Origin: an uncultured Candidatus Saccharibacteria bacterium
GTDB lineage: Bacteria > Patescibacteriota > Minisyncoccia > Phycocordibacterales > UBA9973
Assembly (NCBI GenBank): GCA_964500715.1
Contig: CAZCNC010000001.1
Coordinates: 1 to 43,569 of the forward strand
DNA: 43,569 nucleotides
Direction of reading: 5' to 3'
Shown here: piece by piece, positions 10,422 through 31,542 of the stretch
Position numbering within the stretch: the first letter of the stretch is position 1
Layout: each line of letters opens with the position of its first letter
Position numbers and translations under genes: made by a program
The notes under the pieces: model-generated
Database searches by the model: none
What the model was told of the DNA's origin: nothing
Seen by the model: only the letters and a program-made list of their open reading frames with translations

Positions 10422-10436
10422 TTTTGTTTCCTCCTT

Positions 10437-11930: not shown

Positions 11931-11973
11931 TTTATTTACTTTTTAAGTTTCTTTTTCATTTGAAATTGTAAAA

Positions 11974-12002
11974 ACTATACAGAAATAGGCCTTAAATGTC
12001 AA
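11974..12002 (-). promoter_or_regulatory. Sigma-70-type promoter TTGACA-N17-TGTATAGT for guaB
   Basis: The minus strand reads TTGACA tttaaggcctatttctg TATAGT, about 43 nt upstream of the guaB ATG. Confidence 0.65.
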
Positions 12003-12010
12003 ACAAATAA

Positions 12011-12030
12011 AAAGCCCCTTTCGGGGTTAT
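12011..12030 (-). terminator. Intrinsic terminator downstream of rpmG
   Basis: Hairpin aaccccgaaaggggtt followed by a T-run on the minus strand. Confidence 0.75.
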
Positions 12031-12032
12031 TT

Positions 12033-12188
12033 TTATTTCTTTACTTCTTTAAAGATAACGTGTTTACGAAGCTTTTTAGAGAATTTTTTGAATTCAAGCT
12101 TATTCGTAACAGTCTTTTTATTCTTACGAGTAAAATAAACTTCTTTGGTATCTTTATTCTGTAATTTAACAAGTGCTTTCTGTGCCAT
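12033..12188 (-). CDS. rpmG: 50S ribosomal protein L33 (51 aa, Cys-less form); absent from the ORF track
   Basis: My hand translation gives MAQKALVKLQNKDTKEVYFTRKNKKTVTNKLEFKKFSKKLRKHVIFKEVKK. This fits the L33 pattern (..T.KNK....KLE.KK....RKH..F.E.K). Confidence 0.8.
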   Translation of the reverse strand: MAQKALVKLQNKDTKEVYFTRKNKKTVTNKLEFKKFSKKLRKHVIFKEVKK

Positions 12189-12231
12189 ATATATGTTTTT
12201 ACGGGATTATGCTGCTATTATAGCATATTCT

Positions 12232-13356
12232 CTATTTTATTGCAATTCGTGGGATAAGAGCATTTATTCTGGTGACTATTTCGTAGTTAATTGTTGAAGC
12301 TATTTCAGCAACTTCTTCCGCAGAGATTTCTTGCGACTTTTGTTTACCAATAATTACAACGGGGTCCCCGGCTTTAACATTTGGAACGCTGCTAACATCA
12401 ATAACACACATGTTCATCATTACTCGACCCAAGATTTTACATTTCTTGCCACCACAAAGCATATGGCCTTTGCTGGAAAGTGTTCTTGGTAAGCCATCCC
12501 AATAACCAATTGGTAGTATCGCGATTTTTGTGGCTTTGGTTGCTTTAAAAGTAGCATCGTAAGCAACGGTTTTTCCAGCAGAAATAGTTTTTACCTGTTC
12601 TATCTTTGTCTTCCAAGAAAGAGCTGGATTAAGAGATAGTTTGTTTTTTGCTACATTTTTTACTTCTTGACTTGGCCACAAACCATACATTCCAATTCCG
12701 ATTCTTACCGCGTCATATGCTAATTCTTTCATTCTTAAAAACCCCGATGTCGCACTGGTATGAATAAGTGGGTAGAACCCATCCTCGTTAAGTCTATTTT
12801 GCCAAGCATTTAATTCTTTAATTTGGCTTTTTGTGTAACTATCAAACTTTTTATTTTCGGCACCAATTAAATGAGAGTAGATAGAAACAATGTTTATATC
12901 ACCTGCTTTATTTAATATTTTTACAGCTTCTTCTATCTCTGACATCATTAAACCTTGACGTGACAAACCCGTATCAATTTTAAGGTTAATTAGTAGGTTA
13001 GATTTATTTTTATAAGCTGCAACTTTTTTAAGAACCTCAAGAGATGAAACCGTAATATCGATTTTGTTTTTTAATGCGGTCTCAAGATCTTCCATGTCAA
13101 TTTGTTTTAGAACAAGTATTGGAATTTCTTTATGAGTTTTACGAAGTTCTACTGCATCGGCCATTTCAAAAACTGCTAAATAGTCTACTCCGGCTTTTAT
13201 AGCTGCGTTTGATGAAATTTCTAAATCATGACCATAAGCATTGGCTTTTACTACAGCCATTATCATTGTGTCTTGTGGTAATAATTTTTCGTAGTCTTTT
13301 AAATTCTTTACAATTGCGGATTCGCTTATTTCCACCCAGGTTCGATGATTATTCAT
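12232..13356 (-). CDS. alr: Alanine racemase
   Basis: PLP-lysine motif AVVKANAYGHD, a C-terminal beta domain, 374 aa. Confidence 0.9.
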   Translation of the reverse strand: MNNHRTWVEISESAIVKNLKDYEKLLPQDTMIMAVVKANAYGHDLEISSNAAIKAGVDYLAVFEMADAVELRKTHKEIPILVLKQIDMEDLETALKNKIDITVSSLEVLKKVAAYKNKSNLLINLKIDTGLSRQGLMMSEIEEAVKILNKAGDINIVSIYSHLIGAENKKFDSYTKSQIKELNAWQNRLNEDGFYPLIHTSATSGFLRMKELAYDAVRIGIGMYGLWPSQEVKNVAKNKLSLNPALSWKTKIEQVKTISAGKTVAYDATFKATKATKIAILPIGYWDGLPRTLSSKGHMLCGGKKCKILGRVMMNMCVIDVSSVPNVKAGDPVVIIGKQKSQEISAEEVAEIASTINYEIVTRINALIPRIAIK

Positions 13357-13377
13357 GTAGCTAGTTTAACATGGAAT

Positions 13378-13404
13378 AAAAAAACGGCCTAGAAAGCCGT
13401 TTAT
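13378..13404 (-). terminator. Intrinsic terminator downstream of tRNA-Tyr
   Basis: The minus strand reads aaacggctttctaggccgttttttt. Confidence 0.7.
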
Positions 13405-13408
13405 TTTG

Positions 13409-13491
13409 TGCGCCGGGTTGGATTCGAACCAACGAAGCCCAGGGGCGACAGATTTACAGTCTGTTGTAATTGACCACTCTACCACCGACGC
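13409..13491 (-). tRNA. tRNA-Tyr (anticodon GTA), long variable arm
   Basis: Acceptor gcgtcgg/ccggcgc, loop ctGTAaa, T-arm gttgg-ttcgaat-ccaac. Discriminator A is followed by CA. Confidence 0.85.
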
Positions 13492-13532
13492 GTAAGGCCA
13501 TTATACATAATTCACATAATTTTTCAATAATA

Positions 13533-13560
13533 AAAACCTCCTATCATAATAGGAGGTTTT
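13533..13560 (-). terminator. Intrinsic terminator downstream of clpB
   Basis: 12-bp stem aaaacctcctat/ataggaggtttt directly after the clpB stop. Confidence 0.8.
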
Positions 13561-13562
13561 TA

Positions 13563-16250
13563 TTATTTAGTCTTGTGTCTAGTAACAACTGTAGACTTAA
13601 CTCGTTTTTTGGTTTTATGTTCTACCGCTAATTCTCCATTTTTCTCAGTTACTTCTACCACTGTTCCTGGCTTAATTTCATGAGCAATAATATGTGTGGC
13701 AATTGGGTTTAAAATTTTTGTTTGAATAAGTCGGTTTAATGGACGAGCTCCATAGTGTGGATCGTATCCTTGTTTTGCCAAATAAGAATATGCCCCATCG
13801 GTGATTTGTAAATCAATGCCTTTTGTAAGAAGTCGGTCACGAACAGACTGTGTACGAAGTGTTACAATTTCTCGAATTGTTACAGGTGAAAGTACATCAA
13901 ACACAACTATTTCATCAAGCCGGTTTAGGAATTCTGGACGAAAATGGTTTTTTAATGAATCCATTACCTTTTCTTTTGCATCGTCATAAGCACTGGTTTC
14001 TGTATAAGACCCGAATCCAATAGATTCCATCTTATCGATAAACTGCGAACCAATGTTTGATGTAAGAATAATTATAGTGTTACGGAAATTAACCGGGCGG
14101 CCCTTGGCATCTGTCAGACGGCCTTCGTCTAATACTTGAAGTAAAATGTTAAAGACTTCGGGATGAGCTTTTTCAACTTCATCAAACAAAACTACAGAAT
14201 AAGGTCTATGCCGAACAGATTCTGTTAATTGCCCAGATTCATCATGCCCAACGTAACCAGGTGGTGAACCAACAAGTTTTGAAACACTGTGACGTTCCAT
14301 ATATTCAGACATGTCTACACGAATCAAAGCCCGTTCGTCATTAAACATAAATTCAGCCAAAGCTTTGGTTAATTCGGTCTTACCAACGCCAGTTGGCCCA
14401 AGGAAGATAAATGAACCAATAGGTTTATTTGGGTCTCCAATTCCAGCTCGACTGCGTCTTACAGTCTCTGCAACTTTCTTTACGGCATTGTCTTGACCAA
14501 CAACACGCTTCTTTAACTCATCTTCCATGCGAAGAAGTTTTTGCTTTTCTTCTTCTAGCATTCGCATCAAAGGTATTCCAGTCCAACGACTGACAACTTC
14601 GGCTATATCTTCTGCGGTAATTTCCTCTTTCAAGACGCGTCTGGTTTTCTGCATTTTTTTAAGTTTGACCATCTTTGCATCAAGTTCTTTTTTAAGAAGC
14701 GGGATTTCACCGTAGCGAATCTCCGCAGCGCGAGAAAGATCTTGCCTTAATTGTGCACTGTCGGCTTCGTGACGAAGAGCTTCTAGATCTTTTTTAATTT
14801 GGCGAATACCAATTACAATATCCTTTTCGTTATTCCAACGAACTTCCAAATCTTTAGTTTTGTTTCTATATACTCCAATTTCTTCTTCAATTGCCAAAAG
14901 TCTGTCTTTGATTTCTTTGTTTGATCTAGTATCTCCTTGTTTTTTAATATCTTTACGTAGTGCTTCTCTTTCAATTTCTAGACGCATTATTTTACGATGT
15001 GCATCTTCTAATTCTTGAGGTTTATTTTCCAATGCAATCTTTAGCGAACTTGATGCTTCGTCAATTAAATCTACTGCTTTATCTGGCAGAAAGCGATTTG
15101 TAATATAGCGAGTTGAAAGATTTACGGCTGCCAAAATCGCATCATCAGTAATGTGCACACCATGGAATATTTCATATTTGTCTTTCAACCCACGAAGTAT
15201 TGCAATAGCATCTTCTGGGTTTGGTTCTTCAATATAAACAGGTTGGAAACGACGTGCCAATGCTGGGTCTTTTTCAATATGTTTTTGATATTCTTTTATT
15301 GTTGTAGCACCAATTGCCCGAAGTTCCCCACGAGATAGTGCGGGTTTTAACATGTTTGATGCATCAAGCGACCCCTCAGATGCGCCAGCTCCAACTATAG
15401 TATGAAGTTCATCAATAAAAAGAATTATCTTGCCATCAGATTTTTCAACCTCCTTCATAATATTTCTTAGACGCTCTTCAAACTCGCCTCGATATTTTGT
15501 ACCGGCTAAAAGTAGGCCCAAATCAAGAGACACAATTTCTTTGTCTTTCAAAGTGTCTGGAATGTCGCCTTTTACAATACGATTAGCTAAACCTTCAACC
15601 ACAGCCGTTTTACCGGTTCCAGCTTCACCAATCAAAATTGGATTATTTTTTGTACGTCTAGAAAGTATTTGCATTATGCGCATTATTTCATTGTCACGCC
15701 CAATTACAGGGTCAAGTTTGTCTTCTTTTGCAAGATTATTTAAATTACGGGCGTACTTTTCTAAATTTTTAGCTTTTTTACTTGGAGAAGCATTTTCTAC
15801 ACCATCTTTTTGGGCATCATTTATTACCTGCAGTACAGATTCTTTGGTTATTTTAAAGCGCTCTAAAATATGTCTTGCTTCAGACTGTACGTCAAACAAA
15901 GCTAAGAACATATGTTCAACATCTACAAATTCACTTTTATTTGCAGCAGCAACTTTACTAGAATGTTCAATTACCTGAGCCAATTCTGGAGTTAAATAAA
16001 TTTGATACGATGGAGAAAGCGTAGTACCGCGTTCTGGAATTTCTATATGCTCAAGAATAACATCAACCAAATGGGTTGTGTCTACGTCAAGTCTTTCAAG
16101 AATTGGTAAAACCACTATATCGTCAGACGTAACAAGTGCCGCCAATAAATGCAATGGTGATACATGATTTTGGCCGCGCTCTATAACAAATTCATGGGCA
16201 CGGCGAATAACTTCTTTTGCTTTGGTTGTAAAATGATTAAATGGAGGCAT
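13563..16250 (-). CDS. clpB: ATP-dependent chaperone ClpB
   Basis: Clp N-domain, two AAA+ modules ([16 protein letters not shown]), a long coiled-coil middle domain, 895 aa. Confidence 0.95.
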
Positions 16251-19542: not shown

Positions 19543-19881
19543 ATGGCAGGCTTTAGAAATGACCAAGTATCCACACGAATTCGCGAAATTGTTTCCAAAT
19601 ATATAAGTCGGGAAACTAATGGTAAATCTTTAATTACCGTCACAACTGTGGACATGAATGACCGTGGTGATCATGCAAATATATTTTTTACAGTATTACC
19701 TGAAAGTGAAGAAAAGCCGGCATTAGATTTCTTAAAAAGAAAAAGAAGTGAGATAAGAAAAGAGATAATGAAAAACTTACCAATTGCCAGAATTCCTATT
19801 ATTGAAGTAATGATTGATAAAGGAGAAAAACTGGCTCGCAGAATTACTGAAATAGAGATACAAGAAAAAAACCAAGAATAA
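19543..19881 (+). CDS. rbfA: Ribosome-binding factor A
   Basis: Position directly after infB, size (112 aa) and the RbfA-like N-terminus R..RI.E.....I. Confidence 0.8.
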   Translation: MAGFRNDQVSTRIREIVSKYISRETNGKSLITVTTVDMNDRGDHANIFFTVLPESEEKPALDFLKRKRSEIRKEIMKNLPIARIPIIEVMIDKGEKLARRITEIEIQEKNQE

Positions 19882-19910
19882 ATCTTGTTTTTTTTCTTAA
19901 GTTTTATGGG

Positions 19911-19982
19911 AGGCCCAGGGCGGAATCGAACCGCCGTATAAGAGTTTTGCAGACTCTGACCTTACCACTTGGCGACTGGACC
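19911..19982 (-). tRNA. tRNA-Cys (anticodon GCA)
   Basis: Acceptor ggtccag/ctgggcc, loop ctGCAaa, T-arm ggcgg-ttcgatt-ccgcc, discriminator U, trailer CCCA. Confidence 0.85.
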
Positions 19983-19991
19983 AATATTGTG

Positions 19992-20074
19992 TGCCCAAGG
20001 TGGGACTCGAACCCACACGACCTTGCGATCTGAGGATTTTAAGTCCTCTATGTCTACCATTCCATCACTCGGGC
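19992..20074 (-). tRNA. tRNA-Leu (anticodon TAA)
   Basis: Acceptor gcccgag/cttgggc, loop ctTAAaa, long variable arm, T-arm gtggg-ttcgagt-cccac. Discriminator A is followed by CA. Confidence 0.85.
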
Positions 20075-20083
20075 AAAAGTGAC

Positions 20084-20168
20084 TGGTGCCGAGGAGAGGA
20101 CTTGAACCTCCATTCCTTGCGGAGCTGGTTCCTAAGACCAGTGCGTCTACCAATTTCGCCACCTCGGC
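20084..20168 (-). tRNA. tRNA-Leu (anticodon TAG), CCA encoded
   Basis: Acceptor gccgagg/cctcggc, loop ctTAGga, long variable arm, 3' end A-CCA. Confidence 0.85.
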
Positions 20169-20268
20169 ATAGAGATACTTTATACTATTTTCATAAAATA
20201 TTCAATAGCAGATTGATTTTTAAAGTTATTTATTATAAACTAGTTTAGTAAAATTTTTATTTTACTTT

Positions 20269-20291
20269 GCCCTGTTAGCTGTCTTGGTAGA
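20269..20291 (+). pseudogene. Degenerate copy of the first ~23 nt (acceptor 5' strand plus D-arm) of the downstream tRNA-Lys
   Basis: ttgccctgttagct is identical at 20267 and 20342, and tggtaga matches again 4 nt later (21 of 25 nt identical, offset 75 nt). No matching 3' acceptor strand follows. Confidence 0.6.
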
Positions 20292-20343
20292 TATACAGAT
20301 CAATGCAGAAGTACAGGTTAAAATATTTAGTGACATAGTTATT

Positions 20344-20416
20344 GCCCTGTTAGCTCAGCTGGTAGAGCAGCTCCCTCTTAAGGAGATGGTCGGGGGTTCG
20401 ATCCCCTCACGGGGCA
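20344..20416 (+). tRNA. tRNA-Lys (anticodon CTT)
   Basis: Acceptor gccctgt/acggggc, D-arm gctc-agctggta-gagc, loop ctCTTaa, T-arm ggggg-ttcgatc-ccctc. Discriminator A is followed by CA. Confidence 0.85.
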
Positions 20417-20424
20417 CAAAAATA

Positions 20425-20447
20425 AAAACCGCTTTAAAGCGGTTTTT
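20425..20447. terminator. Bidirectional intrinsic terminator between tRNA-Lys and the pilin-like array
   Basis: Hairpin aaaaaccgcttt/aaagcggttttt with A and T runs on both sides. Confidence 0.8.
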
Positions 20448-20454
20448 ATTTTGT

Positions 20455-20703
20455 CTAAGATCCAGCACGCAGGGTATCTATTAAAAAATTTAGAATACCG
20501 TATACTGCAAACATCACAAACAGTCCTATTAGACCCCACATCATGTGGCGAGTTCCCTTTTGTCTTGCTTCTTCACTAGAAGCATTCATAATCATTTCTA
20601 CAACACCCCAAACGAATATAAGTATAGCAACAATGAACATTAGCTTAATTAGCGGCTGTACAATGTTAGAAATAAGGGCACCAACGACACTGCCAGAAGT
20701 CAT
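20455..20703 (-). CDS. VirB2/TrbC-like two-helix hairpin protein P1 (82 aa from ATG 20703; start uncertain, TTG at 20748 possible)
   Basis: Core LIFVWGVVEMIMNASSEEARQKGTRHMMWGLIGLFVMFAVYGILNFL: hydrophobic helix, short charged loop, hydrophobic helix. It is paralogous to P2 and P4. Confidence 0.65.
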   Translation of the reverse strand: MTSGSVVGALISNIVQPLIKLMFIVAILIFVWGVVEMIMNASSEEARQKGTRHMMWGLIGLFVMFAVYGILNFLIDTLRAGS

Positions 20704-20717
20704 ATACAAAACGACTA

Positions 20718-21116
20718 TTAACAGTTTTGATCCTGTCCAGGAACACAAGGAAGAACAACAGAGTCAGATCCAGGTGTACCAGTACCAAGTGTACGACGTA
20801 CAATTCCGACCAATCCCCAAATTGTTGTAATAACAAACAAACCTAAGATACCATAAAGAATTGTGCCTTTTGCTTTTGACTTTGCTTCTTCAGATCCAGA
20901 AGCACCAGCCATAATAAATTGGACAACACCCCAAATGATCATTAGGATAGCAAGACCAACAAGCACGCGAATAACAAGGTTCATTAAACTTTGGCCAGTT
21001 GAAAGCACAGTAAACGCATTTTGGTTACCAGCATAAGCAGGACCAACGTTTACATTTTGAGCAAAAACTGCAACTGGAGCTAAGAAGCTAAATACTAGAG
21101 CAATAAATTTACGCAT
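20718..21116 (-). CDS. VirB2/TrbC-like pilin-type protein P2 (132 aa; signal peptide plus two-helix hairpin)
   Basis: Signal peptide MRKFIALVFSFLAPVAVFA|Q. Core LMIIWGVVQFIMAGASGSEEAKSKAKGTILYGILGLFVITTIWGLVG. The C-terminal tail has a Cys pair. The start is set at ATG 21116, because the tracked 21188 start adds a non-signal-like extension. Confidence 0.7.
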   Translation of the reverse strand: MRKFIALVFSFLAPVAVFAQNVNVGPAYAGNQNAFTVLSTGQSLMNLVIRVLVGLAILMIIWGVVQFIMAGASGSEEAKSKAKGTILYGILGLFVITTIWGLVGIVRRTLGTGTPGSDSVVLPCVPGQDQNC

Positions 21117-21152
21117 AATTAACAATAATTTGTTTCCTATTAATATGGATCC

Positions 21153-21182
21153 ATTATACCATAAGGCCAAAAATGGTGTAAA
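21153..21182 (-). promoter_or_regulatory. Internal promoter TTTACA-N18-(TGG)TATAAT ahead of P2/P1
   Basis: The minus strand reads tttaca ccatttttggccttatgg tataat, about 36 nt upstream of the P2 ATG. It lies in the only sizeable gap (about 90 nt) of the array. Confidence 0.5.
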
Positions 21183-21206
21183 GAACAAAAGGAATTCTGT
21201 GTATAA

Positions 21207-22172
21207 CTATTTGTTAGAAGCTCCCTCTTTTAGTGGAAAAGATTTTGTAATGTAATATTTGCCAGTATTTGAAGTAATGGAGTATTCTCCGGCACATTGA
21301 TAATTTACGCCTGAATCTGTGCCTATTTCTTTAGTTATAAGTTCATTGTTTAAAACACTTTTAATTTCTGTAAACCAACTAGTAGCACTGCCCCCGTGAC
21401 CATCTACACAGTGCATACCAACACCATCTACACCTGCAGTTGTTGTTAAATAATAGCTAATTAAACCTGGAGAAAAACTGTTAATTTTTAAAGTAATTTT
21501 TGAATTATCTAAAATATCAGTTGGGTTAATTGGATCACTTTCGTTTGGGTAAGAATTAAAACTTGAAGACCCACCGGTTGCGCCACCAGTGTTATTTGTA
21601 TTAGTCCCAGCTGTAGTATTCCCAGATGTCATGCCTCCGGTTGTTGTACCGGTTGTTGTGCCAGCAGAGCTAGAACCGCCCGTTGTACTGCCAGCAGTTA
21701 CGCTTCCAGCAGTGGTCGCCCCAGTAGAACTAGTCGTAGAAGTAGTTTTTTGCGTATTAACGCCGCTGTCTTTAGCAATGTTTGAAACAGTGTCTACTAA
21801 AACCGTAGCAATGAGTTGAGCTCCTAAAAGTATTGCTGCACCGATTAAAGTCCAAGTAAGAGTCTTGTGAGCTGTCTCAATGGCTTCTGGTCGCCCACGA
21901 GCTAATACATAAAGAAATCCAGAGTAAATTACCATCACTATAACAATAGGCAGTGCAATGTCTACTATAGTTTTTAGAATTGCGGACAGTATGTCTTTAA
22001 CATCCTTTTTACAATTTTGACCCTTTGAATCACAAAGTGGATTCTCAACAGCAACAGTTAATTCAAACTTATCTTGTGGAAGATCTTCAGCGTAAGCAAA
22101 GTTACTATTAAAAGCTAACCCGGGTGTTAAAACACTGGTGAACAGGAACAGAGTTAAAATAAGTTTCTTCAT
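21207..22172 (-). CDS. Pilin-hairpin fusion protein P3: signal peptide, Cys pair, two-helix hairpin, Thr/Gly/Ser-rich linker, ~115-aa Cys-bracketed C-terminal domain
   Basis: Signal peptide MKKLILTLFLFTSVLTPGLA, C47/C54, core LPIVIVMVIYSGFLYVLARGRPEAIETAHKTLTWTLIGAAILLG, linker at residues ~139-204, C255..NYQC293. Confidence 0.7.
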   Translation of the reverse strand: MKKLILTLFLFTSVLTPGLAFNSNFAYAEDLPQDKFELTVAVENPLCDSKGQNCKKDVKDILSAILKTIVDIALPIVIVMVIYSGFLYVLARGRPEAIETAHKTLTWTLIGAAILLGAQLIATVLVDTVSNIAKDSGVNTQKTTSTTSSTGATTAGSVTAGSTTGGSSSAGTTTGTTTGGMTSGNTTAGTNTNNTGGATGGSSSFNSYPNESDPINPTDILDNSKITLKINSFSPGLISYYLTTTAGVDGVGMHCVDGHGGSATSWFTEIKSVLNNELITKEIGTDSGVNYQCAGEYSITSNTGKYYITKSFPLKEGASNK

Positions 22173-22173
22173 A

Positions 22174-22734
22174 CTACTTCAAGTTTTGCACTTTTTCTTT
22201 TAATTGTACATATGGTGTTGTGTCATCTTTAAAATTAGACCCAAAACCGATTGTTCGACGAATAATTGCCACCAAGGCATAAACAGCAGTAATTGCAAAG
22301 AAACCGATTATACCCCAAAGTATAAAAGTTCGTCCTTTACTTTGAGCTTCTTCGCTGGCAGGATTACGCATCATTGTTGTGACTCCCCAAATAAATGAGA
22401 CTAAAGCCAAGGTGAAAATAAATGGCAGTACAGCTACACGAATACCACAACCAATGTAATCAACGTATCCATTTATGGTTTTACTTGCCAAATTACAAAC
22501 GCTGTTTGTGCTAGCATTTGAATTTACAGCCCCACTTACAGTGTATTGACCTTCGGTTCCCGATACCGCAGAACTATTTGTTATATTTGTATTTGAACTT
22601 CCGTCAAAACTGCTACTACCATTCCAGATAGTTGTGTTGCCCGTGGTTTCGTCTTGGTAGCCAGTAAATTGGGCATAACCAACAAATGGTACAATCATTA
22701 AACCTATAATTATAATTTTTGTTAAATATTTCAT
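22174..22734 (-). CDS. VirB2/TrbC-like pilin-type protein P4 with an S/T/N-rich N-terminal extension
   Basis: Signal peptide MKYLTKIIIIGLMIVPFVGYA|Q, an ~80-aa S/T/N/G-rich segment with a Cys pair, and core LVSFIWGVTTMMRNPASEEAQSKGRTFILWGIIGFFAITAVYALV. Confidence 0.7.
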   Translation of the reverse strand: MKYLTKIIIIGLMIVPFVGYAQFTGYQDETTGNTTIWNGSSSFDGSSNTNITNSSAVSGTEGQYTVSGAVNSNASTNSVCNLASKTINGYVDYIGCGIRVAVLPFIFTLALVSFIWGVTTMMRNPASEEAQSKGRTFILWGIIGFFAITAVYALVAIIRRTIGFGSNFKDDTTPYVQLKEKVQNLK

Positions 22735-22738
22735 AATA

Positions 22739-25036
22739 TTATGGGGTCGTTATAATAAATTGGAAGTTAACTTTTTGTTTTTGATATGTTGTACCGTTTA
22801 GTTCACAATTGTATTTTGTCCCCGGCTTTAGGCCTGGTATTGTGCTGGACACAGGAATAGCAATTGGCATTCTTATACCCAAAGCTTGAGGTGGCCAAAA
22901 CGCTTCTCCAGAATAATTACCAACAACATTTCTACAAGAATAATTAACACTGTTTTGTAATCTTGGAGAAGCCACAATTGTAAACGTTGCAAAACTACTA
23001 TTGGCAGATACATTTTCTGCAGCCAAGACAACAGGGCCAATATCTGTGGGGTCAATATAAATTGGTATACCCACAACAACAGAGCGAATTTGTGGAATTT
23101 TCTCTACAGTAAAGGCAGCGAAGCAGTTATATATTGAAGAGTGCATAAAACCAGATTTAGGATCTTGAGTTATAGGAATCGAAAAACCAGGACCAGCAGT
23201 GCCACCACGACCATTGTCTCCATAAACTTTTGACATACCGTTTATTGAACCAATTTCCCCGGAAACACTAACGGTTCTAACCCAGTTTGTTCCGGCTGCA
23301 ACGCCAGTAATACCACTACACGAAAGATTCATACGAGAATTATCCACAACGTCTCCGTTTGTTACTGGTATAAACATTGCATCAGGAATAAATTGTTTAA
23401 AGTTTGATGGTGAAAGATATGGGCCATTTGAATTTGGGTTTGTAGAGTTTAAAATTGGGTAGTTTGTATATACAATTCTTGGCGAACGTAGTGACACGTA
23501 GTAAGAAAGTTTTGATTCAGGGTTTTTAATTAGAGGTATAGGGTTAGTCGTAATATTAAAAATGGTTGATTGATTAGTAACAATTTGGGGTGGATATTCT
23601 GCCACTTGGGTCAATGTTTTACCACTAAGTCTACAAGAATAAAAAGAGTCCGGTCTTAACCCATAACCATTCCAAGCCACAGGCAACACTATGGGTGACG
23701 TAATTACCCCATTTGGATTTTGGTTTCTTTGAAAAGCCGTTGGGTCAAAAGAAACTTTTGCTCTAAAAATATGATTCGACCCATTTGAACTACACTCAAG
23801 AGTCAAATTAGGATCTATGTTTATACTACCGTTAAAATTAACAAGCACAGAAGTATTAGTATTAGTACTACCAACGCTAGCCATAAAAACAGTTGGGATA
23901 ATATTATTAGTATTTATGGCGGTAAAGATACCATTTATAGCAAAAATTTTTGGATTTATTTTTTGAGTAATTTTATCTACAGTATAAGCAGTAAACGTAC
24001 AATTGGCTTCAGTATTTTGTTTCAGACCAGCAAGAAAACCATTTGGAATTGCAAAATTTAGAACCTTTACCTCATTTGATTTTGAGCGATCAATGACTGC
24101 CCCCATTTCAGATAAAAGATAATTTTGTTTACCTTTTTCTTTACAATACAAAAAAACAGCGTCCGACCCCAGGGTTGATGCATTTTTATAATTAATAGTA
24201 ATAAAGTCTGTGCTAAATTTTGAAGAAACTACAGCAAAGTCCGGAGTTTCTGGAGAAATTCTTGGTGTGCGAAATTCCCCATCTGTTGCATCTGTAAGCT
24301 TGATTTGGCCTTCCATATTTTCCAGTGTACATTTGTAAGCAGTATCTTCGTCCAACTTTAAAACAATTGTTGTTACAGTGCTACCAGATGCAATAGAACC
24401 TTCTCCTTCTCTTCTGGTTTCTCCATCGTCAGTAAGACATGACATTCGAACTGCCATTTTGTATGGAGCCTTTGGGGTAATTGTAACTGTTGCCCGAGTA
24501 GCATCTGGTTTTTGAGAATTTACTACAATTGTTGCAGCATATTCGGTATGGGTAGTACTACTGCCTGCTCCACCAGATTGAGAAGTTGTATTTTGTGCAA
24601 TTACCACAGACCCAGCTGTGGCAGTATTAGCATTCCAGTTTAATGTTTTATCGGATAGACCTGCCCTGCCACGCGTAGTATCTACGCCTAGTGCTGTAAA
24701 AATAGTATAGACAATAAACCAAGCCCCCAGTATAAGAGCCAAGCCAATAAACATATTTTTAAATATTTTTTTTGCTTTAGATCGTCTTTCTTGATTGCCA
24801 CCACTGGTCATAAATAAAAAACCAGAATACGCAATTAGTAGTATCATGAATGGCAAAAGTATTGTCTGTAGAAAAAATTTAACTCCATTGTTAATTAAAA
24901 CAAATACATCATTAAACTTACACATTGCAGCACTTCCTTTGGCGCAAGGTATTCCAATTTCAGCAGAAACAGTTATTGGTAGTATGCTAACAACAAGAGC
25001 AAGAGTAATTAGTATGAGAAATTTTCTTAACTTCAT
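22739..25036 (-). CDS. Large surface protein P5: signal peptide, Cys pair, pilin-type hairpin, then a ~645-aa ectodomain of five Cys-bracketed FN3-like modules
   Basis: Signal peptide MKLRKFLILITLALVVSILPITVSA, C31/C39, core LLPFMILLIAYSGFLFMTSGGNQERRSKAKKIFKNMFIGLALILGAW. Cys pairs are 200/236, 298/346, 415/468, 573/638 and 701/744. FN3-like strings GLRPDSFYSCRLSGKT and GLKPGTKYNCELNGTT are present. Confidence 0.75.
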   Translation of the reverse strand: MKLRKFLILITLALVVSILPITVSAEIGIPCAKGSAAMCKFNDVFVLINNGVKFFLQTILLPFMILLIAYSGFLFMTSGGNQERRSKAKKIFKNMFIGLALILGAWFIVYTIFTALGVDTTRGRAGLSDKTLNWNANTATAGSVVIAQNTTSQSGGAGSSTTHTEYAATIVVNSQKPDATRATVTITPKAPYKMAVRMSCLTDDGETRREGEGSIASGSTVTTIVLKLDEDTAYKCTLENMEGQIKLTDATDGEFRTPRISPETPDFAVVSSKFSTDFITINYKNASTLGSDAVFLYCKEKGKQNYLLSEMGAVIDRSKSNEVKVLNFAIPNGFLAGLKQNTEANCTFTAYTVDKITQKINPKIFAINGIFTAINTNNIIPTVFMASVGSTNTNTSVLVNFNGSINIDPNLTLECSSNGSNHIFRAKVSFDPTAFQRNQNPNGVITSPIVLPVAWNGYGLRPDSFYSCRLSGKTLTQVAEYPPQIVTNQSTIFNITTNPIPLIKNPESKLSYYVSLRSPRIVYTNYPILNSTNPNSNGPYLSPSNFKQFIPDAMFIPVTNGDVVDNSRMNLSCSGITGVAAGTNWVRTVSVSGEIGSINGMSKVYGDNGRGGTAGPGFSIPITQDPKSGFMHSSIYNCFAAFTVEKIPQIRSVVVGIPIYIDPTDIGPVVLAAENVSANSSFATFTIVASPRLQNSVNYSCRNVVGNYSGEAFWPPQALGIRMPIAIPVSSTIPGLKPGTKYNCELNGTTYQKQKVNFQFIITTP

Positions 25037-25037
25037 A

Positions 25038-26402
25038 TTAGTTTCCTGTTGGAACTGTTACTGTAGTTTGCACTCCAGAATTTAAACTTTGATTTAATCT
25101 ATTTAAAAGAAATTCTAAATTCCCATTAGCTCTGTCGTATGCACCTTCTTCATCGGCCCCGCCAGCTAATATACTTTGAGTTAGTTCTCTAAATATTCCC
25201 AGTGTTTGTGTCTTATCTGGATCCAAAAATGAAACACTACGTAGTGCACCAGCTTGCAATGTACTTTGATATGCCAAAGATGGGTCAGCTGCCTGTTTTA
25301 AATCTGCGGCATAAACTGGTGGCAGCGATAATATTTTAGCAATTTGACCTGCGTGATATGGGCTAGCAACTGTTTGCATTGTTAAAATTGCTGTTATTTT
25401 ATTGGTTGAATATTTAGAAAGCGCTAAACCAGTAAGATGCGCGTATGTTTTTTTATTTGTGGCGCCGCGTGGTTGTGGTATATCAGTTTATGCTAAAGAA
25501 AGATTTGGGTTTCTTTCTCGAAGGTTAAACAGTTCGCTTGCGAAACCAGGATAAAAAACGATGCGTTCAGTTAAAAATGAACTTGTAGCATCTGGTAAGC
25601 TTTTGTTCCATGAATATACAAATGTATCAGGTGAAGCAAAGTCTGTAAAAAAAGTTGTAACCGCCGGCAAGGATAGACCAAGTGACGTTCTGTGTGATGC
25701 CAATGTGGAAACATAGTAGCCTTCGTTATTTATAGCAACAATTGGGTTTCCAACTTGAGCTAAAAGCAGTATTATTACATCTTTTGCATGACTATAATTT
25801 TCAAACCTTCCAAATGGAATTGTGCTTTGTAGAAATGCTCCAGTTGTGTCACGTTTTGTTAAAGTCTCAGCTAGTGTATTAAATTCATCCCAGTATTTTG
25901 GTGGAGTCGCAATACCATCGTTTGCTAAAAGTGTTTTGTTGTAATACAAAACCATTGGGTCAATTAAAAAAGGATAAGCAAGAACGCCTTTAGGTGATAG
26001 GAAAATAGAGAATGCTCCGGCGTAACTTTCTAAAAATGTTTTTTGAGGTAAAGTAGTATAACTGACTGGTTCAATTTGAGCACTAAAACGAAGTACATTT
26101 TCATTATCTACAAAGAATAAGTCTGGTGCAGTACCGTCAGCAAAAGCTTCTATTAATTCAGATTCGTAAGTTGATTTATCTTTGGCAATATAGCGAATAT
26201 GGAAATCCTGTATACCATCAGCCAAATCTGTCATGTAAGAAACAAAGTTTGGGTCACTAATTGTGCCCCAAATTACAACAGTTCCACTGCCTTTTACGCT
26301 ACTTTTACCAGACGGAGTTGGGATATAACCAGCAAAAACCATAACTGCTAAGATTGCTCCGACTCCAAATACTATTAACAAAATTGTTTGAAATTTTTTC
26401 AT
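25038..26402 (-). pseudogene. Family-1-type extracellular solute-binding protein gene interrupted by one in-frame TAA (25488-25490)
   Basis: ORFs 25488-26402 and 25038-25379 share a frame. The 36 codons between them are open. The join reads ..NLSLA*TDIPQPRGATNKKTYAHLTGLALSKYSTNKITAILTMQTV.., continuing the SBP fold pattern. The total is 455 codons. Confidence 0.8.
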
Positions 26403-26407
26403 AATTA

Positions 26408-26926
26408 TTATTCTTCAGAATGCAAAGGACATACACCTATAATACCATATTCATCCTGTTTCGTGTCAAAATTTTCACCCAAAAGAAAACCGGCGTGATC
26501 TAAATATTCAAGCATGTCATCAAACATTATTTTTGTATCAGAAGATGTTGCTACACCAAATGAATCATTCCGAGATTCTATAACAAGTAAAATGCCACCT
26601 GGTTTTAAAACTCGTTTACATTCTTTCAAACATGACTCTCTGTAAATTAAATGACGCAATGTATGTGACAAAACAACAGCATCAAAGCTAGATTCTCTAA
26701 AAGGTAAAGGTTTGCCATTGTCCACATTTACAGCTAAAGCTTTTATGTTTTTATTATGCAATGTCTTAACTTTTTCTTGGTTAAGCTCAACAGCAATTAC
26801 TTTACCGTTTGGAACTTTTAAAGATAAAAATTCAGCCAAACGCCCAACACCAGCACCAATGTCTAAAATCTTGGCGTCTTTTTTTACAGGCAGCGAATCT
26901 ATAATAAAAGAGACGCTTGTAAACAT
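26408..26926 (-). CDS. Class I SAM-dependent methyltransferase (172 aa)
   Basis: Motif I ILDIGAGVGRLAEFL and a post-I acidic residue (VIAVELN). The Methyltransf_11/25-like layout includes LKPGGILLV. Confidence 0.75.
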   Translation of the reverse strand: MFTSVSFIIDSLPVKKDAKILDIGAGVGRLAEFLSLKVPNGKVIAVELNQEKVKTLHNKNIKALAVNVDNGKPLPFRESSFDAVVLSHTLRHLIYRESCLKECKRVLKPGGILLVIESRNDSFGVATSSDTKIMFDDMLEYLDHAGFLLGENFDTKQDEYGIIGVCPLHSEE

Positions 26927-26930
26927 ATGA

Positions 26931-29402
26931 TTAGTTTAGTATTGCAAGCGATGCTAATGAATCCCCTGCACGAAGCTTCATAATAGTTACACCTTGTGTG
27001 GAACGGCCCAATACTGGAACAGAAGAAAGGTCTGTACGGATTGTTTGGCCTTTTTTAGAAATTGCGATTAGTTCGCCATCGTCCCCGGCAATACGTGCAG
27101 AAATTATTTCGCCAGTTTTTTCTGTAACTTTAGCAGTTAAAATTCCAGATCCACCACGCTTTTGAACTTTGCCTTCAGTCAGATTAGTACGCTTACCCAA
27201 GCCTTTCTCACTAATTGTAAACATGGTTAAATCTTTTGCATCTTTGGAGATTGAATTCACCCCAATGACAGCATCGCCTTTTTCTAGCTTCATCCCGATA
27301 ACCCCGGCAGCTGCGCGACCCATTTGGCGAATATCTGACTCTTTAAATCGAATTGACTGACCATCTTTGGTTACAAGCAAGACATCGTCGCCTTTTTCAA
27401 GTGCAAGAACAGAAATTAGCTCGTCGCCTTTTTCAAGTGTTATTGCAATTAACCCGCTACGACGTACATCTTTGAAAGATTCATAGGCAACCTTTTTAGC
27501 TGTACCATTTTTTGTAATAAGCATTAAAGATTCATAACGTGCTTTGTCGTTCTTACCAATTGGCAGTATTGAAGTTACGCGTTCATCGCCACCTAGTGAA
27601 AGAAAGTTATTTATTGATTTTCCTTTTGTTGCACGCTTACCTTCTGGAATATCAAACATTCTGATTTGATATGCGCGACCTTGATTAGTAAAGAATAATA
27701 GATCTGCATGAGTATTGGCATCTATTAACATTGTTACAAAATCTTCTTCTTTGGTTTCAATATCAATGGTTCCAACACCACCACGATTTTGTTTGCGATA
27801 CTCTGTTGGATCTGTACGTTTTACATAGCCACCAGCGGTGTAAACTAAAACAGATTCTTTTTCTGGGATTAGGTCTTCGTCGCTCATAGACTTTAGACCA
27901 CCTTTTACTATTTTTGTACGGCGATCATCTGCGTAAGATTTTTTTACACCTTCTAATTCATCAGTAATTATTTTCGTAACTTTTTTCGGAGTCTTTAGAA
28001 TGCTTTCAAATTCGGCAATTAAATCTTGTTTTTCTTTAAGTTCTGTTTCAACGGCCTTGCGTTCTAGGCCAGCAAGTTTTTGCAAACGCATTTCAAGAAT
28101 TGCAGTTGCTTGAAGGTCGCTGAATTTGAATCGTTTTATTAAAGCTTCTTTTGCGGCTGCCCCGTCTTTAGATGCACGAATGATTTTAATGACTTCATCA
28201 ATAAAATCTAATGCTTTTTTAAGACCAAGCAAAATATGCTCACGGTCACGGGCACGATTTAGATCAAACTGTGTACGACGTGTAATAACTTCACGACGAT
28301 GTTTAATAAATTCTTCAATAAAAGATTTTAGTGACAAAGTTTGCGGAATACCATCAACAAGAGCCACCAAGTTATAGTGGAAAACTGACTCTAATTGAGT
28401 ATGTTTGTATAAATAGTTTAAAACTTTTTGTGGATGAGCTCCGGTTTTAAGATCTATTACCACGCGCATGTCACGAGTAGATTCGTCACGTAGCCCGCGA
28501 ATACCGTCTATTTTTTTATCACGAACCAAGTCAGCAATTGATTCTACAAAGTTTGCTTTGACCACACGGTATGGCAATGATGTAACAATGATTTGGAATT
28601 GCCCACCTTTTTGCTCTGCTACTTCGGCTTCGCCACGCACAACCACGCCCCCGCGACCAGTTTGGTAAGCATGTAAAATATCTTTTTTATTATAAGCAAT
28701 AGCCCCTGTTGGAAAATCCGGTCCTTGAATAAATTCTAGTAAATCTTCTGTGGTTGCATCTGGATTATCGTTAAAATGTAAACACGCATCTATTACTTCA
28801 CCCAAATTATGTGGCGGTATGTTTGTTGCCATACCAACAGCAATACCCAGTGTACCGTTTAATAGTAGCCCTGGTACAACTGCAGGCAATACTGAAGGTT
28901 CTTTTTTTGTTTGATCGTAATTTGGACGAAAATTTACTGTTTCCTTTTCCAAGTCTTGCAAAAAGATGCTGGAAATTTTAGACATTTTAGCTTCGGTGTA
29001 ACGCATTGCAGCGGCATTGTCTCCATCTACTGAACCAAAGTTACCTTGGCCAAAAACCAAAGGATAGCGGTATGAGAAATCTTGCGCCATACCAACCATA
29101 GCATCGTACACCGAAGTATCACCGTGTGGATGGTATTTACCCAGTACTTCTCCCACTACAGCAGCAGATTTACGGAACCGTCCCCCAGATGTAAGACCCA
29201 TTTCATGCATCGCAAAAAGAATACGACGGTGTACTGGCTTTAGACCGTCACGAATATCCGGCAAGGCCCGAGATGTAATAACACTCATCGCGTAATCAAG
29301 ATATGATTCGCGCATTTCTGTAACAACTTCGCGTACGTTAATACGGTCAGTCACTACAACTGGCACTTCATTTGGTTCTTTATCTTTTGGTGTTTTTGCC
29401 AT
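26931..29402 (-). CDS. gyrA: DNA gyrase subunit A
   Basis: Active-site region [10 protein letters not shown], the QRDR-like segment [16 protein letters not shown], and C-terminal beta-pinwheel repeats. 823 aa. Confidence 0.95.
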
Positions 29403-29407
29403 ATTAA

Positions 29408-29647
29408 TTAATTATTCTTATTCAATGCGTCTTTTCCTTTTTCTAATTCTTGGGAAACATTTTGTTTGGTTTGTTTAAAAAATGACGATACAGGGTTAAT
29501 GTCTTCTTTTATACCATTAAATCTATAAAGTGATCCACCGGTTAGAATTAAATACATAATTGCGATTGTAGCAGTTGCAATTACTGCGCATAGAAACGCT
29601 TTTTTCTTTTTTGTATTTATATCTTGGTTAATCTCCTTTTCAAACAT
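29408..29647 (-). CDS. Small single-pass membrane protein (79 aa), hypothetical
   Basis: One hydrophobic helix ([21 protein letters not shown]), tightly packed between the MBL-like gene and gyrA. Confidence 0.5.
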
Positions 29648-29649
29648 AA

Positions 29650-30267
29650 CTATGCGTCAATTATAACAACTTCTCCTTCTTTGCCAGATAAATCTTTTTT
29701 CTTAACTGTTAATTTATCAATTCCTTTTACATCGTCCTGCCCAGCTTCTTTTAAGAAAGATTTAATTTTTGCTTTGTCAGACCCAACCGGTATTATCATT
29801 GCAGCATCCGAACCTACAGCGGTTTTGTAAGCCATTTGGTTTGTTAAGTCTGGTTGGTCTATTGGCACAAAGATAATATCACAAGTTCCAATTTTGCCAC
29901 GAAATTCTGGATTTAACATTTCGTCTGTAGCAAAACCTAGAAAAACCAAATTCATACCATCAAGGTTCATTCGGTAAACTGTATTTATATATTTATCTTT
30001 ACCCAGCGTTACTTCGCCGCCAATGCCTTCGATAGACAAACCGGTTATTTCATAGTTTCCAGGACCATCAATGACAAAAGGCACAGTTGTACCATATTCC
30101 ATATTCTCTGGGCCATTAGCATTATCTAAATGAGTAGAAACAAGTACAACATTAGCCCCAAATCTTGGGACCTTGCCATCTTTTACAGCTTTTGGTGGGT
30201 TATATGATAATGTAAAATCTCCGTACTGAATCTTTAAACAGCTTTCTCCTTGGTATGTAACAATCAT
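29650..30267 (-). CDS. MBL-fold (UPF0173-like) protein with a degenerate metal-binding motif
   Basis: The N-terminus MIVTYQGESCLKIQ resembles the UPF0173 metallo-hydrolase start. The position of HxHxDH reads STHLDNANG. Confidence 0.5.
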   Translation of the reverse strand: MIVTYQGESCLKIQYGDFTLSYNPPKAVKDGKVPRFGANVVLVSTHLDNANGPENMEYGTTVPFVIDGPGNYEITGLSIEGIGGEVTLGKDKYINTVYRMNLDGMNLVFLGFATDEMLNPEFRGKIGTCDIIFVPIDQPDLTNQMAYKTAVGSDAAMIIPVGSDKAKIKSFLKEAGQDDVKGIDKLTVKKKDLSGKEGEVVIIDA

Positions 30268-30275
30268 ATGGGGTA

Positions 30276-30281
30276 ATTATA
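30276..30281 (-). promoter_or_regulatory. -10 box TATAAT, 8 nt upstream of the ATG at 30267; candidate start of the 30267-to-20455 co-directional array
   Basis: The minus strand reads gctataat-taccccat-ATG. Confidence 0.45.
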
Positions 30282-30315
30282 GCTGAAATTAGCCTTATAG
30301 TAAACAAATTTTTCC

Positions 30316-30344
30316 TTGCCAAAGGTCAATTTCTATGCTAGTTT
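30316..30344 (+). promoter_or_regulatory. Candidate rpsA promoter TTGCCA-N17-(TGc)TAGTTT, giving a ~115-nt leader
   Basis: Sequence ttgcca aaggtcaatttctatgc tagttt. This is a weak call. Confidence 0.35.
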
Positions 30345-30465
30345 TAGAGCAGTCTTTAATTAATAGTAATAACTAATTAGCTGACCCTTTCTGGATCCCT
30401 TATAAAGTCAATCGACTGTAAATCCGGTACCAGAAATACTAATTAGCCACAAAAAGATATAATTT

Positions 30466-31542
30466 ATGAGTGATGAACTAACACTAAAGTCCATCATCGA
30501 GGATTCAGCCAATGCTCCGGCGGTTGAAGCTCTTGTTGAAGGACCTGTTATCGGCATCAAAAAGTCATCGGTCTATATTGACCTTGCACCTTTTGGAACC
30601 GGTATAATCTACGGCCGCGAATTTATTGCAGCCCGTGATATTATAAAAAAAGTAAGTATCGGCGACACTGTAAAAGCAAAGGTTGTTGATGCCAAAAATG
30701 AAGACGGATACGTAGAATTGTCTTTGAAAGAAGCTAAGCAAGCTCTAATTTGGAGCGAGGCAGAACGCCACATCAAAGCTAAAACAATTCTTGAAATTCC
30801 AGTTAAAGAAGCTAACAAAGGTGGTCTTATACTGGACTGGCAAGGTATTAGTGGATTTCTACCAGCTTCACAACTTCGTGCAGAGAACTACCCTCGCGTA
30901 AACGATTCTGACAAAGACAAAATCCTTGGCGAATTGAAAAAGCTTGTTGGTAAGAAACTTTCTGTAACAATTCTTACTGCTATTCCAAAAGAAGGTAAAC
31001 TAATCTTCTCTGAAAAAGAGAACAATCCAGAAGAACGTGCAGAAACTCTTTCAAAATACAATGTTGGTGACGAACTAGATTGTGAAGTTTCTGGAATTGT
31101 AGACTTTGGAGTATTCTTAAAAATTGAAGAAGGCTTAGAAGGATTAGTCCACATATCCGAACTTGACTGGGGGCTAGTGGAAGACCCACGCCAACTATTT
31201 AAACTGGGCGAATCTGTTCGTGCAAAAGTTATTGAAGTTAAAGAAGGTAAAATTTCTCTTTCTATCAAAGCTTTAAAGGAAAACCCTTGGGCAGAATTTG
31301 AAGGTAAAATTAAAAAGGGCGACATCGTAAGTGGTGTTGTAATAAAATTCAACAAACACGGTGCGCTTGTATCTATCAAACAAGGTGTGGCAGGACTATG
31401 TCACCATTCTACAATGGGTGGCGAAGACAAGCTTCGTGAAAAATTGTCACTTGGTAAAACATACAATTTCCAAGTAACATTGTTTGAACCAAAGAATCAA
31501 AGAATGACACTGGTACTAATGGAAGAAGGCACAAAAGCGTAA
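30466..31542 (+). CDS. rpsA: 30S ribosomal protein S1 (four S1 domains, 358 aa)
   Basis: Repeated S1/OB motifs (G..V.G.V..I....V.VDL, GLVHISEL). Confidence 0.9.
   Translation: MSDELTLKSIIEDSANAPAVEALVEGPVIGIKKSSVYIDLAPFGTGIIYGREFIAARDIIKKVSIGDTVKAKVVDAKNEDGYVELSLKEAKQALIWSEAERHIKAKTILEIPVKEANKGGLILDWQGISGFLPASQLRAENYPRVNDSDKDKILGELKKLVGKKLSVTILTAIPKEGKLIFSEKENNPEERAETLSKYNVGDELDCEVSGIVDFGVFLKIEEGLEGLVHISELDWGLVEDPRQLFKLGESVRAKVIEVKEGKISLSIKALKENPWAEFEGKIKKGDIVSGVVIKFNKHGALVSIKQGVAGLCHHSTMGGEDKLREKLSLGKTYNFQVTLFEPKNQRMTLVLMEEGTKA

Follow-up and report, generated by a model that had tools for sequence, protein, structure and literature searches.

An operon of five VirB2-like pilin paralogues with adhesin-like fusions in a Patescibacteria genome

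Arrays of small VirB2-related pilin genes have been described before in the Patescibacteria. In Saccharibacteria, arrays of 4 to 6 small, signal peptide-bearing proteins of this kind were reported (McLean et al. 2018 preprint, 10.1101/258137), and in Southlakia epibionticum a predicted pilin series inside a type IV secretion system (T4SS) cluster is essential (Wang et al. 2023 Cell, PMC10633639). Besides the T4SS and its pilin array, few systems have been shown to be indispensable to a cultured member of the Patescibacteria in its epibiotic life. In a survey of 3,035 Patescibacteria genomes with the models PF18895 and PF04956 (Quinonero-Coronel et al. 2025; PMC12102498), VirB2-like genes were present in 1,948 VirB4-positive assemblies, and 441 pilin arrays of 2 to 11 genes were found in 383 assemblies, with a mean paralogue identity of 25% and a maximum of 54%. 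Here, we describe five consecutive genes on the minus strand (positions 20455-25036) of a 43,569-nucleotide contig from an uncultured Candidatus Saccharibacteria bacterium (assembly GCA_964500715.1, contig CAZCNC010000001.1; the whole stretch is called the window below). Their products, P1 to P5, share a two-helix hairpin, and we lean toward reading them as an operon of five specialised VirB2-like pilins, in which P2 and P1 would be the major and P5, P4 and P3 the minor subunits of a pilus or conduit of the T4SS type; the genes of its machinery would lie elsewhere. Tandem VirB2-like pilins in a genome of the candidate phyla radiation (CPR), with the machinery out of sight, are already a known kind of feature; what we did not find described before are the adhesin-like pilin fusions, the fixed operon of five paralogues and the conserved internal promoter.

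All five genes are present in the list of open reading frames (ORFs), and their products, with the starts given below, are on record as NCBI proteins. Longer ORFs of P1 and P2 with TTG starts were rejected as mechanical artefacts of ORF calling. A sequence-only reading of this DNA, made before our analysis, had already recognised five consecutive minus-strand genes with a common hairpin core, and the ORFs together with Pfam and BLASTP bear this out. The features are the following (window coordinates):

P5: 22739-25036, minus strand; 765 aa, signal peptide aa 1-25 (24962-25036), hairpin aa 36-115 (24692-24931).
P5 linker: 24542-24691, minus strand; aa 116-165, predicted to be disordered, S/T/N/G-rich.
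P5 predicted beta-sandwich domains (five): 22742-24541, minus strand; aa 166-765, one Cys pair per domain.
P4: 22174-22734, minus strand; 186 aa, signal peptide aa 1-21, hairpin aa 97-165 (22240-22446).
P4 N-terminal extension: about 75 aa, S/T/N/G-rich, ending in the conserved pair C80/C96.
P3: 21207-22172, minus strand; 321 aa, signal peptide, hairpin aa 58-129 (21786-22001), T/S/G-rich linker, C-terminal module.
P3 C-terminal module: 21210-21557, minus strand; about 115 aa (aa 206-321), Cys 255/293.
P2: 20718-21116, minus strand; 132 aa from ATG, signal peptide aa 1-19, hairpin aa 42-110 (20787-20993), short C-terminal tail with a Cys pair.
P1: 20455-20703, minus strand; 82 aa from ATG, the smallest pilin, hairpin aa 10-78 (20470-20676).
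Candidate promoter: 21153-21182, minus strand; sigma-70-type with extended -10, in the P3-P2 gap (21117-21206).
Terminator hairpin (predicted): 20418-20454; symmetric, with A-run, GC stem and T-run, separating the stop codon of P1 from a convergent tRNA-Lys gene.
Solute-binding protein (SBP) gene: 25038-26402, minus strand; directly upstream of P5, product predicted to be membrane-anchored.

The survey defines a pilin array as 2 to 11 pilin genes, in tandem or with one non-pilin gene between them, and with low paralogue identity (PMC12102498), and the window array falls under this definition with five adjacent genes whose products are 18-41% identical to P1 over the aligned hairpin-containing regions. 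By sequence, the hairpins belong to the CPR family PF18895 (T4SS_pilin, "Type IV secretion system pilin"; gathering cut-off, 26.6 bits). P1 (44.0 bits), P2 (39.1 bits), P5 (38.5 bits) and P3 (33.0 bits) all score above the cut-off, and P4 (12.2 bits) below it. P4 is nevertheless a clear paralogue of the other pilins at the sequence level: BLASTP connects it to P1 (1e-17) and P2 (2e-16), and a clade-specific iterated hidden Markov model (HMM), whose seed comprised all five window hairpins, that of P4 among them, gives it 85 bits. BLASTP also pairs P1 with P2 (4e-15) and P3 with P5 (1e-11). Paralogy and this HMM score together bring P4 into the PF18895 group. The sequence-only reading had assigned the cores to the small T4SS-pilin-like proteins of the CPR and had divided them into two subtypes, P1/P2/P4 and P3/P5; the significant similarity to the T4SS-pilin model (four of the five proteins directly, P4 by paralogy) and the BLASTP pairings agree with both statements. 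All five are also related to NF045849 (Mbov_0395 pilin-like conjugal transfer protein) without being members, with scores of 34.1 (P1), 28.4 (P2), 22.9 (P5), 18.1 (P4) and 15.5 bits (P3) against a cut-off of 40.

With the published Patescibacteria arrays the locus shares family, phylum, divergent tandem paralogues, signal peptides and a chromosomal position that is often away from virB4. The published arrays are described as small proteins, whereas fusions, a fixed five-gene order and an internal promoter were not found described in the available texts; in the open-access literature, we found no description of VirB2-ectodomain fusions. Furthermore, the S. epibionticum array sits inside its T4SS cluster (PMC10633639), whereas the window array lies among housekeeping genes beside gyrA. 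According to a review and a preprint of 2025, VirB2-like proteins are used by T4SSs of monoderms as well, and PrgF is such a protein in a Gram-positive T4SS (bioRxiv 10.64898/2025.12.18.695078). PrgF (ter Beek et al. 2025 preprint) and Mbov_0395 of Mycoplasma integrative and conjugative elements resemble the window proteins as small two-helix proteins with a charged loop that belong to a monoderm T4SS, but both are single-copy and encoded in conjugation operons beside virB6, whereas the window has five paralogues, fused ectodomains and no conjugation genes nearby. Classical pilins of the VirB2/TrbC/TraA type (PF04956) likewise combine a signal peptide with two hydrophobic helices that a short charged loop connects, and P3 comes near the TrbC model; on the other hand, no window protein passes PF04956, and the window organisms are monoderm. 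Classical conjugative pilins are small, single-domain and often cyclised, and to our knowledge none of them carries a 650-aa C-terminal ectodomain. Within PF18895, too, long fusions are atypical, since each of the 120 best matches to the hairpin profile has a length between 73 and 122 aa. One homologue (P0156, 304 aa) passes the cut-offs of both PF18895 (33.8 bits) and PF04956 (29.0 bits); its hairpin is C-terminal (aa 224-294) and follows a 220-aa N-terminal extension, so large N-terminal fusions exist too.

The operon is conserved. A scan of genome contigs with P5 alone found no relatives, and an alignment-based rescan found eight loci; in at least nine related loci (L001-L009), the genes follow each other in the order MBL-fold (metallo-beta-lactamase-fold) gene, small ORF, gyrA, methyltransferase, SBP and P5-P4-P3-P2-P1. 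In GCA_034680565.1, this operon lies on a contig of 314 kb. The orthologues at each position compare as follows:

P5 orthologues: 721-811 aa; mean hairpin identity, 63.1%.
P4 orthologues: 182-199 aa; mean hairpin identity, 70.5%.
P3 orthologues: 128-448 aa; mean hairpin identity, 74.2%.
P2 orthologues: about 131-136 aa from ATG; mean hairpin identity, 82.6%.
P1 orthologues: 80-82 aa; mean hairpin identity, 80.8%.

The mean identity of the P5 orthologues is 45% in the ectodomain and 39% in the linker. Since orthologous hairpins are 63-83% identical, compared to 18-41% among the paralogues, each position of the array is an orthologous group of its own, and the five genes are better read as old, specialised subunits than as recently diversifying copies. 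The closest named relative that shares the gyrA-methyltransferase-SBP synteny is Candidatus Nomurabacteria RIFCSPLOWO2_01_FULL_33_17 (GCA_001786995.1; GTDB class Paceibacteria), with a three-gene array at positions 9977-12745 of locus L010. Its P5-type pilin has only 148 aa and its P3-type pilin 595 aa, and hence, the large ectodomain is on a different paralogue there; the 10 kb upstream of that array contain no large unassigned ORF.

The genes of the window array are tightly packed, with 1-14 nt between them, except for the 90-nt gap between P3 and P2. This only gap, in which a promoter had been suspected in the sequence-only reading, contains TTTACA-18-TGGTATAAT (21182-21153, minus strand), with 11 of 12 consensus matches plus the TG, which is the top promoter-like match within 19800-30500. 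The extended -10 element before P2 (TGnTATAAT; TGGTATAAT) stands at the same position in seven of nine orthologous loci, and P2-P1 therefore look like a transcription unit of their own. Function is deduced from the motif and its conservation: the promoter probably drives a separate P2-P1 transcript, and the P2-P1 unit is probably expressed more strongly. In four of the related loci (L002, L004, L005 and L006), a perfect inverted repeat, terminator-like and located after P3, lies just upstream of the conserved -10. At the other end, the hairpin 3' of P1 folds with -17.9 kcal/mol (z = -7.0; none of 200 shuffles folds as well) and is predicted to be a strong, symmetric intrinsic terminator. Its stem is flanked by an A-run and, at the opposite end, by a T-run, and it borders a cluster of four tRNA genes (19909-20417: Cys, Leu and Leu on the minus strand, Lys on the plus strand), of which tRNA-Lys is convergent with P1 and abuts the terminator; a bidirectional terminator beside this cluster had been proposed before and stands.

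The most unusual part of the array is the extension of P5. An AlphaFold2 (AF2) model of P5, built with a 12-sequence alignment (mean predicted local distance difference test [pLDDT] score, 71; about 80-90 in the beta domains), has a signal helix, the hairpin, a disordered linker (117-163) and five all-beta domains (aa 166-256, 268-371, 384-496, about 520-656 and 671-763). Foldseek matched the model to tandem FN3/Ig-like proteins of the PDB, down to E = 3e-11 for cytokine receptors; other matches were the MG domains of complement C3/C5, FN3 repeats of contactin and fibronectin, a large adhesion protein from a bacterium (its extending region; 6xi3) and S-layer proteins (7ptp and 8opr). The model thus shows the extension as five disulphide-bearing beta-sandwich domains of FN3/Ig-like fold. 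Among the domains themselves, only some pairs were significant in BLASTP (d3-d5, 2e-6; d2-d5, 3e-4), and the count of five is drawn mainly from the AF2 model and the spacing of the Cys pairs. P5 has 12 full-length homologues with 41-53% identity. An exhaustive HMMER search with the ectodomain against 1.84 billion cluster representatives yielded only eight proteins, and the ectodomain is confined to a very narrow clade. In seven of the eight, the match starts at about residue 146-250, which leaves room for a pilin hairpin on its N-terminal side; in the eighth (P0142, 203 aa), it starts at residue 31, PF18895 has no match, and the protein may be a fragment. Two of the matches are short forms of 250-255 aa with the hairpin and one domain. 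The C-terminus of P5 (22742-22760) ends in an invariant T-P in all orthologues, with a conserved F-x-I-x before it, and has no LPXTG motif; this pattern could be a processing or sorting signal.

P3 is modular in another way: the hairpin is near-invariant among its orthologues, and the C-terminal part differs between genomes. Four orthologues (128-135 aa) lack the module, the window protein has a Cys-pair domain, and the P3-type homologues P0147, P0148, P0149 and P0151 have an SH3_3-like domain after the hairpin (18-25 bits; Pfam cut-off, 27). A P3-type pilin at positions 13056-14402 of locus L009 is listed among those with the SH3_3-like domain. SH3_3 is a bacterial SH3 domain that typically binds the cell wall. 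Between genomes, the module has thus been gained, lost or replaced.

The extensions would all be exposed outside the cell. Read by eye, the N-termini of P2, P3, P4 and P5 begin with a K/R stretch, which a hydrophobic core follows, and carry small residues at -3 and -1, with predicted cleavage sites at VFA/Q, AYA/E, GYA/Q and VSA/E, respectively, whereas P1, read in the same way, has no cleavable signal peptide; four signal peptides among the five proteins is also what had been noticed before. The Cys pairs that had been seen before helix 1 of three proteins are indeed present (C31/C39 in P5, C80/C96 in P4 and C47/C54 in P3). The pairs of P5 and P4 are conserved in nine of nine orthologues, that of P3 in only two of nine, and the pair in the P2 tail in eight of nine. 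Of the 12 Cys residues of P5, 11 are conserved in all nine orthologues and C573 in eight. Conserved Cys pairs are confined to predicted extracytoplasmic segments, with none in the helices or the loop, and the inter-helix loops carry K/R. In the AF2 models, P5 has helices at 36-76 and 82-115, and P1 (pLDDT, 85.6) consists of two long helices at 3-39 and 44-81. The architecture of classical pilins (signal peptide, two transmembrane helices and a short charged loop) is thus matched, with both termini predicted outside from hydropathy, Cys positions and AF2. Because the signal peptides, the K/R loops, the Cys pairs in the outside parts and the FN3/Ig-like folds of P5 agree, an N-out/C-out topology fits, and nothing in the prediction put the extensions into the cytoplasm; the earlier expectation that they face outward is consistent with these predictions. 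The charged loops of VirB2-type pilins point into the lumen of the assembled pilus, and the two termini lie on its outer side (bioRxiv 10.64898/2025.12.18.695078).

In the Patescibacteria, the PF18895 family is linked to a T4SS derived from the monoderm-type (MPF-FATA) conjugation machinery; the topology, polymerisation, stoichiometry and adhesion that our model contains we infer from the features described above. The pilins would be inserted by Sec/YidC into the cytoplasmic membrane, with the N- and C-termini outside and the short charged loop inside, and signal peptidase would cleave P2 to P5. A VirB4/VirB6-type machine, encoded elsewhere, may then pull the hairpins out of the membrane and build from them a short pilus or a wall-spanning conduit, with the loops lining the lumen and the termini directed outward. 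P2 and P1, which are small, the most conserved and provided with a strong promoter of their own, would likely be the major structural subunits. P5, P4 and P3, co-transcribed from upstream, would likely be low-copy minor subunits at the tip, at the base or sparsely along the filament, where they may display their modules: the five FN3/Ig-like domains of P5, the swappable C-terminal module of P3 and the glycine/serine-rich N-terminal arm of P4. These modules would confer the reach and the adhesion for which other systems have VirB5 or PrgB-type adhesins. A filament decorated by adhesin-bearing subunits, as already imagined in the sequence-only reading, is a plausible and in our view the best reading.

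Modular type IV pilins (Streptococcus sanguinis PilB/PilC) and the tip adhesins VirB5 and PrgB offer a comparison of functional logic: an adhesive module is borne by a polymerising pilin module or sits on top of it, and minor subunits in low copy accompany abundant major ones. These proteins belong to unrelated families and machines, and the likeness to the window pilins is one of analogy only. Taking the idea one step further, P5 and P3 might be true minor pilins in the tip or shaft of a Patescibacteria T4SS pilus that carry their own adhesins, replace the missing VirB5/PrgB-type adhesins and set the host cell of the epibiont, a proposal that we make tentatively and to which we give less than even credence. 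The five-paralogue operon would then encode a hetero-oligomeric T4SS pilus, of which we know no description in any T4SS. The survey of 3,035 Patescibacteria genomes detected no PrgB-type adhesin (PMC12102498).

Several points weigh against a T4SS pilus. Pfam scans of the other 37 ORFs of the window found no VirB4, VirB6, VirD4 or relaxase, and in the literature that we covered, we found no report of a pilus visualised for any Patescibacteria T4SS. Direct similarity to VirB2/TrbC is marginal: P3 approaches PF04956 with 25.2 bits (E = 1.9e-5), but no window protein reaches the cut-off (27.9), and hhalign of two of our alignments (A3 and A4) with VirB2 gave a probability of 4%, although the alignments are co-linear; this is a weak test, as the VirB2 set comprised six alphaproteobacterial proteins from Ti/Ri-type plasmids and was narrow (Neff 2.4). 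Searched against PDB sequences, the hairpin profile found no pilin and only chance matches to helices of chemokine receptors (G protein-coupled receptors [GPCRs]), and Foldseek with the P1 model against the PDB gave generic helical hairpins (best E, 0.49) with no pilin in the top 50, the two-helix hairpin being too simple and generic to be discriminated by a fold search. Furthermore, a 650-aa extension on the subunit of a helical filament is sterically awkward unless that subunit is present in low copy, and the assignment of major and minor subunits is drawn only from size, conservation and promoter position. Of the VirB2/TrbC pilin architecture claimed in the sequence-only reading, the hairpin architecture stands, and the relationship to VirB2/TrbC proper stays marginal; the label "VirB2-like" is based on the Pfam family, on TrbC matches near the threshold, on the architecture and on the association with T4SS known from published genomic and genetic work.

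The statistically weak similarity to proven pilus-forming VirB2 (PDB, Foldseek and hhalign) could also be expected if the proteins formed a surface scaffold independent of any T4SS. The hairpin would then be a two-pass membrane anchor, possibly oligomeric, from which no filament is extruded; P5 and P3 would be membrane-anchored proteins of a stalk, S-layer-like or adhesin type, with the small paralogues as their partners in a membrane platform. The lack of machinery nearby, the position of the array among housekeeping genes in every related genome and the S-layer (7ptp and 8opr) and adhesion-protein (6xi3) matches of P5 all speak for this possibility. However, loop and helices are strongly conserved across the five paralogues, which suggests a specific packing beyond the need of an anchor, and the family often lies beside VirB4, TrsD and PrgI (Table S3 of PMC12102498) and is essential within a T4SS cluster (PMC10633639). 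We consider the scaffold improbable, if by no means negligible. Less credible still is that the five paralogues are interchangeable major pilins that vary surface properties or host range, as proposed for the VirB2 arrays of Bartonella and Anaplasma and tentatively for Patescibacteria. The 18-41% identity of the window paralogues does match the published average of 25% (PMC12102498), and the exposed P3 modules vary between genomes, but every paralogue is a fixed-position orthologous group in at least nine genomes (hairpins 63-83% and P5 ectodomain 45% identical), and since the architectures differ, from 82 to 765 aa, the proteins are not interchangeable. The conservation of the five positions as orthologous groups weakens the reading as antigenic variation given in the literature, and the fixed order argues against the published view that such paralogues serve mainly antigenic or host-range variation. 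It is very hard to believe, finally, that we are dealing with small membrane proteins of unrelated kinds, for example holins of phages or subunits of transporters, which share a hydrophobic hairpin by chance. Two-helix hairpins are generic, and there were weak matches to MatE and BacA (Pfam/NCBIfam) besides the GPCR helices of the PDB, but PF18895 is specific and was matched above threshold, the synteny is conserved, and there is no phage or transporter context. An origin as holins or from phage was rejected, as none of the five proteins matched a PHROG family at E <= 0.01 and the context is one of housekeeping genes; homologues are not consistently tied to an unrelated function such as that of holins or transporters.

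For the favoured reading, an operon of specialised T4SS pilins, the machinery has to be sought elsewhere in the genome. The window is one whole contig of 43.5 kb, and the genome is probably 0.5-1 Mb in size (judged by the Patescibacteria sizes in Table S1, PMC12102498). Pilin genes were near virB4 in only 1135 of the 1948 Patescibacteria assemblies with both, and in about 42% they were away from it (PMC12102498). Because pilin genes are often distant from virB4 and the window is a fraction of the genome, missing machinery is expected; the absence pointed out in the sequence-only reading holds for the window, but it is not the anomaly it was taken for. Indirect support for a T4SS elsewhere in the genome comes from the Nomurabacteria genome GCA_001786995.1, the only syntenic genome that the published dataset includes, which is listed as VirB4-positive (Table S1 of PMC12102498); the window's genome may encode one as well.

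Pilin hairpins that carry a string of FN3/Ig-like domains or, in relatives, an SH3b-like module would be concrete candidates for the part of the Patescibacteria T4SS that contacts the host. Furthermore, the fixed order of five genes and the separately promoted small subunits predict a filament of major and minor subunits. If, on the contrary, the array is independent of a T4SS, the PF18895 hairpin would have been reused in these cells as a general anchor for surface proteins.

The other sizeable ORFs of the window are all housekeeping genes (topA, relA/spoT, parB, murB, murA, miaA, purA, guaB, alr, clpB, infB, rbfA, gyrA, pth, lepB, hisS, def, fmt and truB). The SBP gene, a conserved neighbour of the array with Pfam matches to SBP_bac_8 and SBP_bac_1, is split in the window by one in-frame TAA at 25488-25490. 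Its orthologues (450-454 aa) show no such interruption, with M, V or L in place of the stop, and the part downstream of the stop is still well conserved. A frameshift was excluded, as tblastn gave a single in-frame high-scoring segment pair across the stop; the TAA is either a recent nonsense mutation or a sequencing error. At 6370-7896 (plus strand), the window encodes a MurA-like protein of the EPSP_synthase family (508 aa) with an N-terminal HTH_3/XRE domain (aa 15-65), a fusion that is unusual for a cell-wall enzyme.

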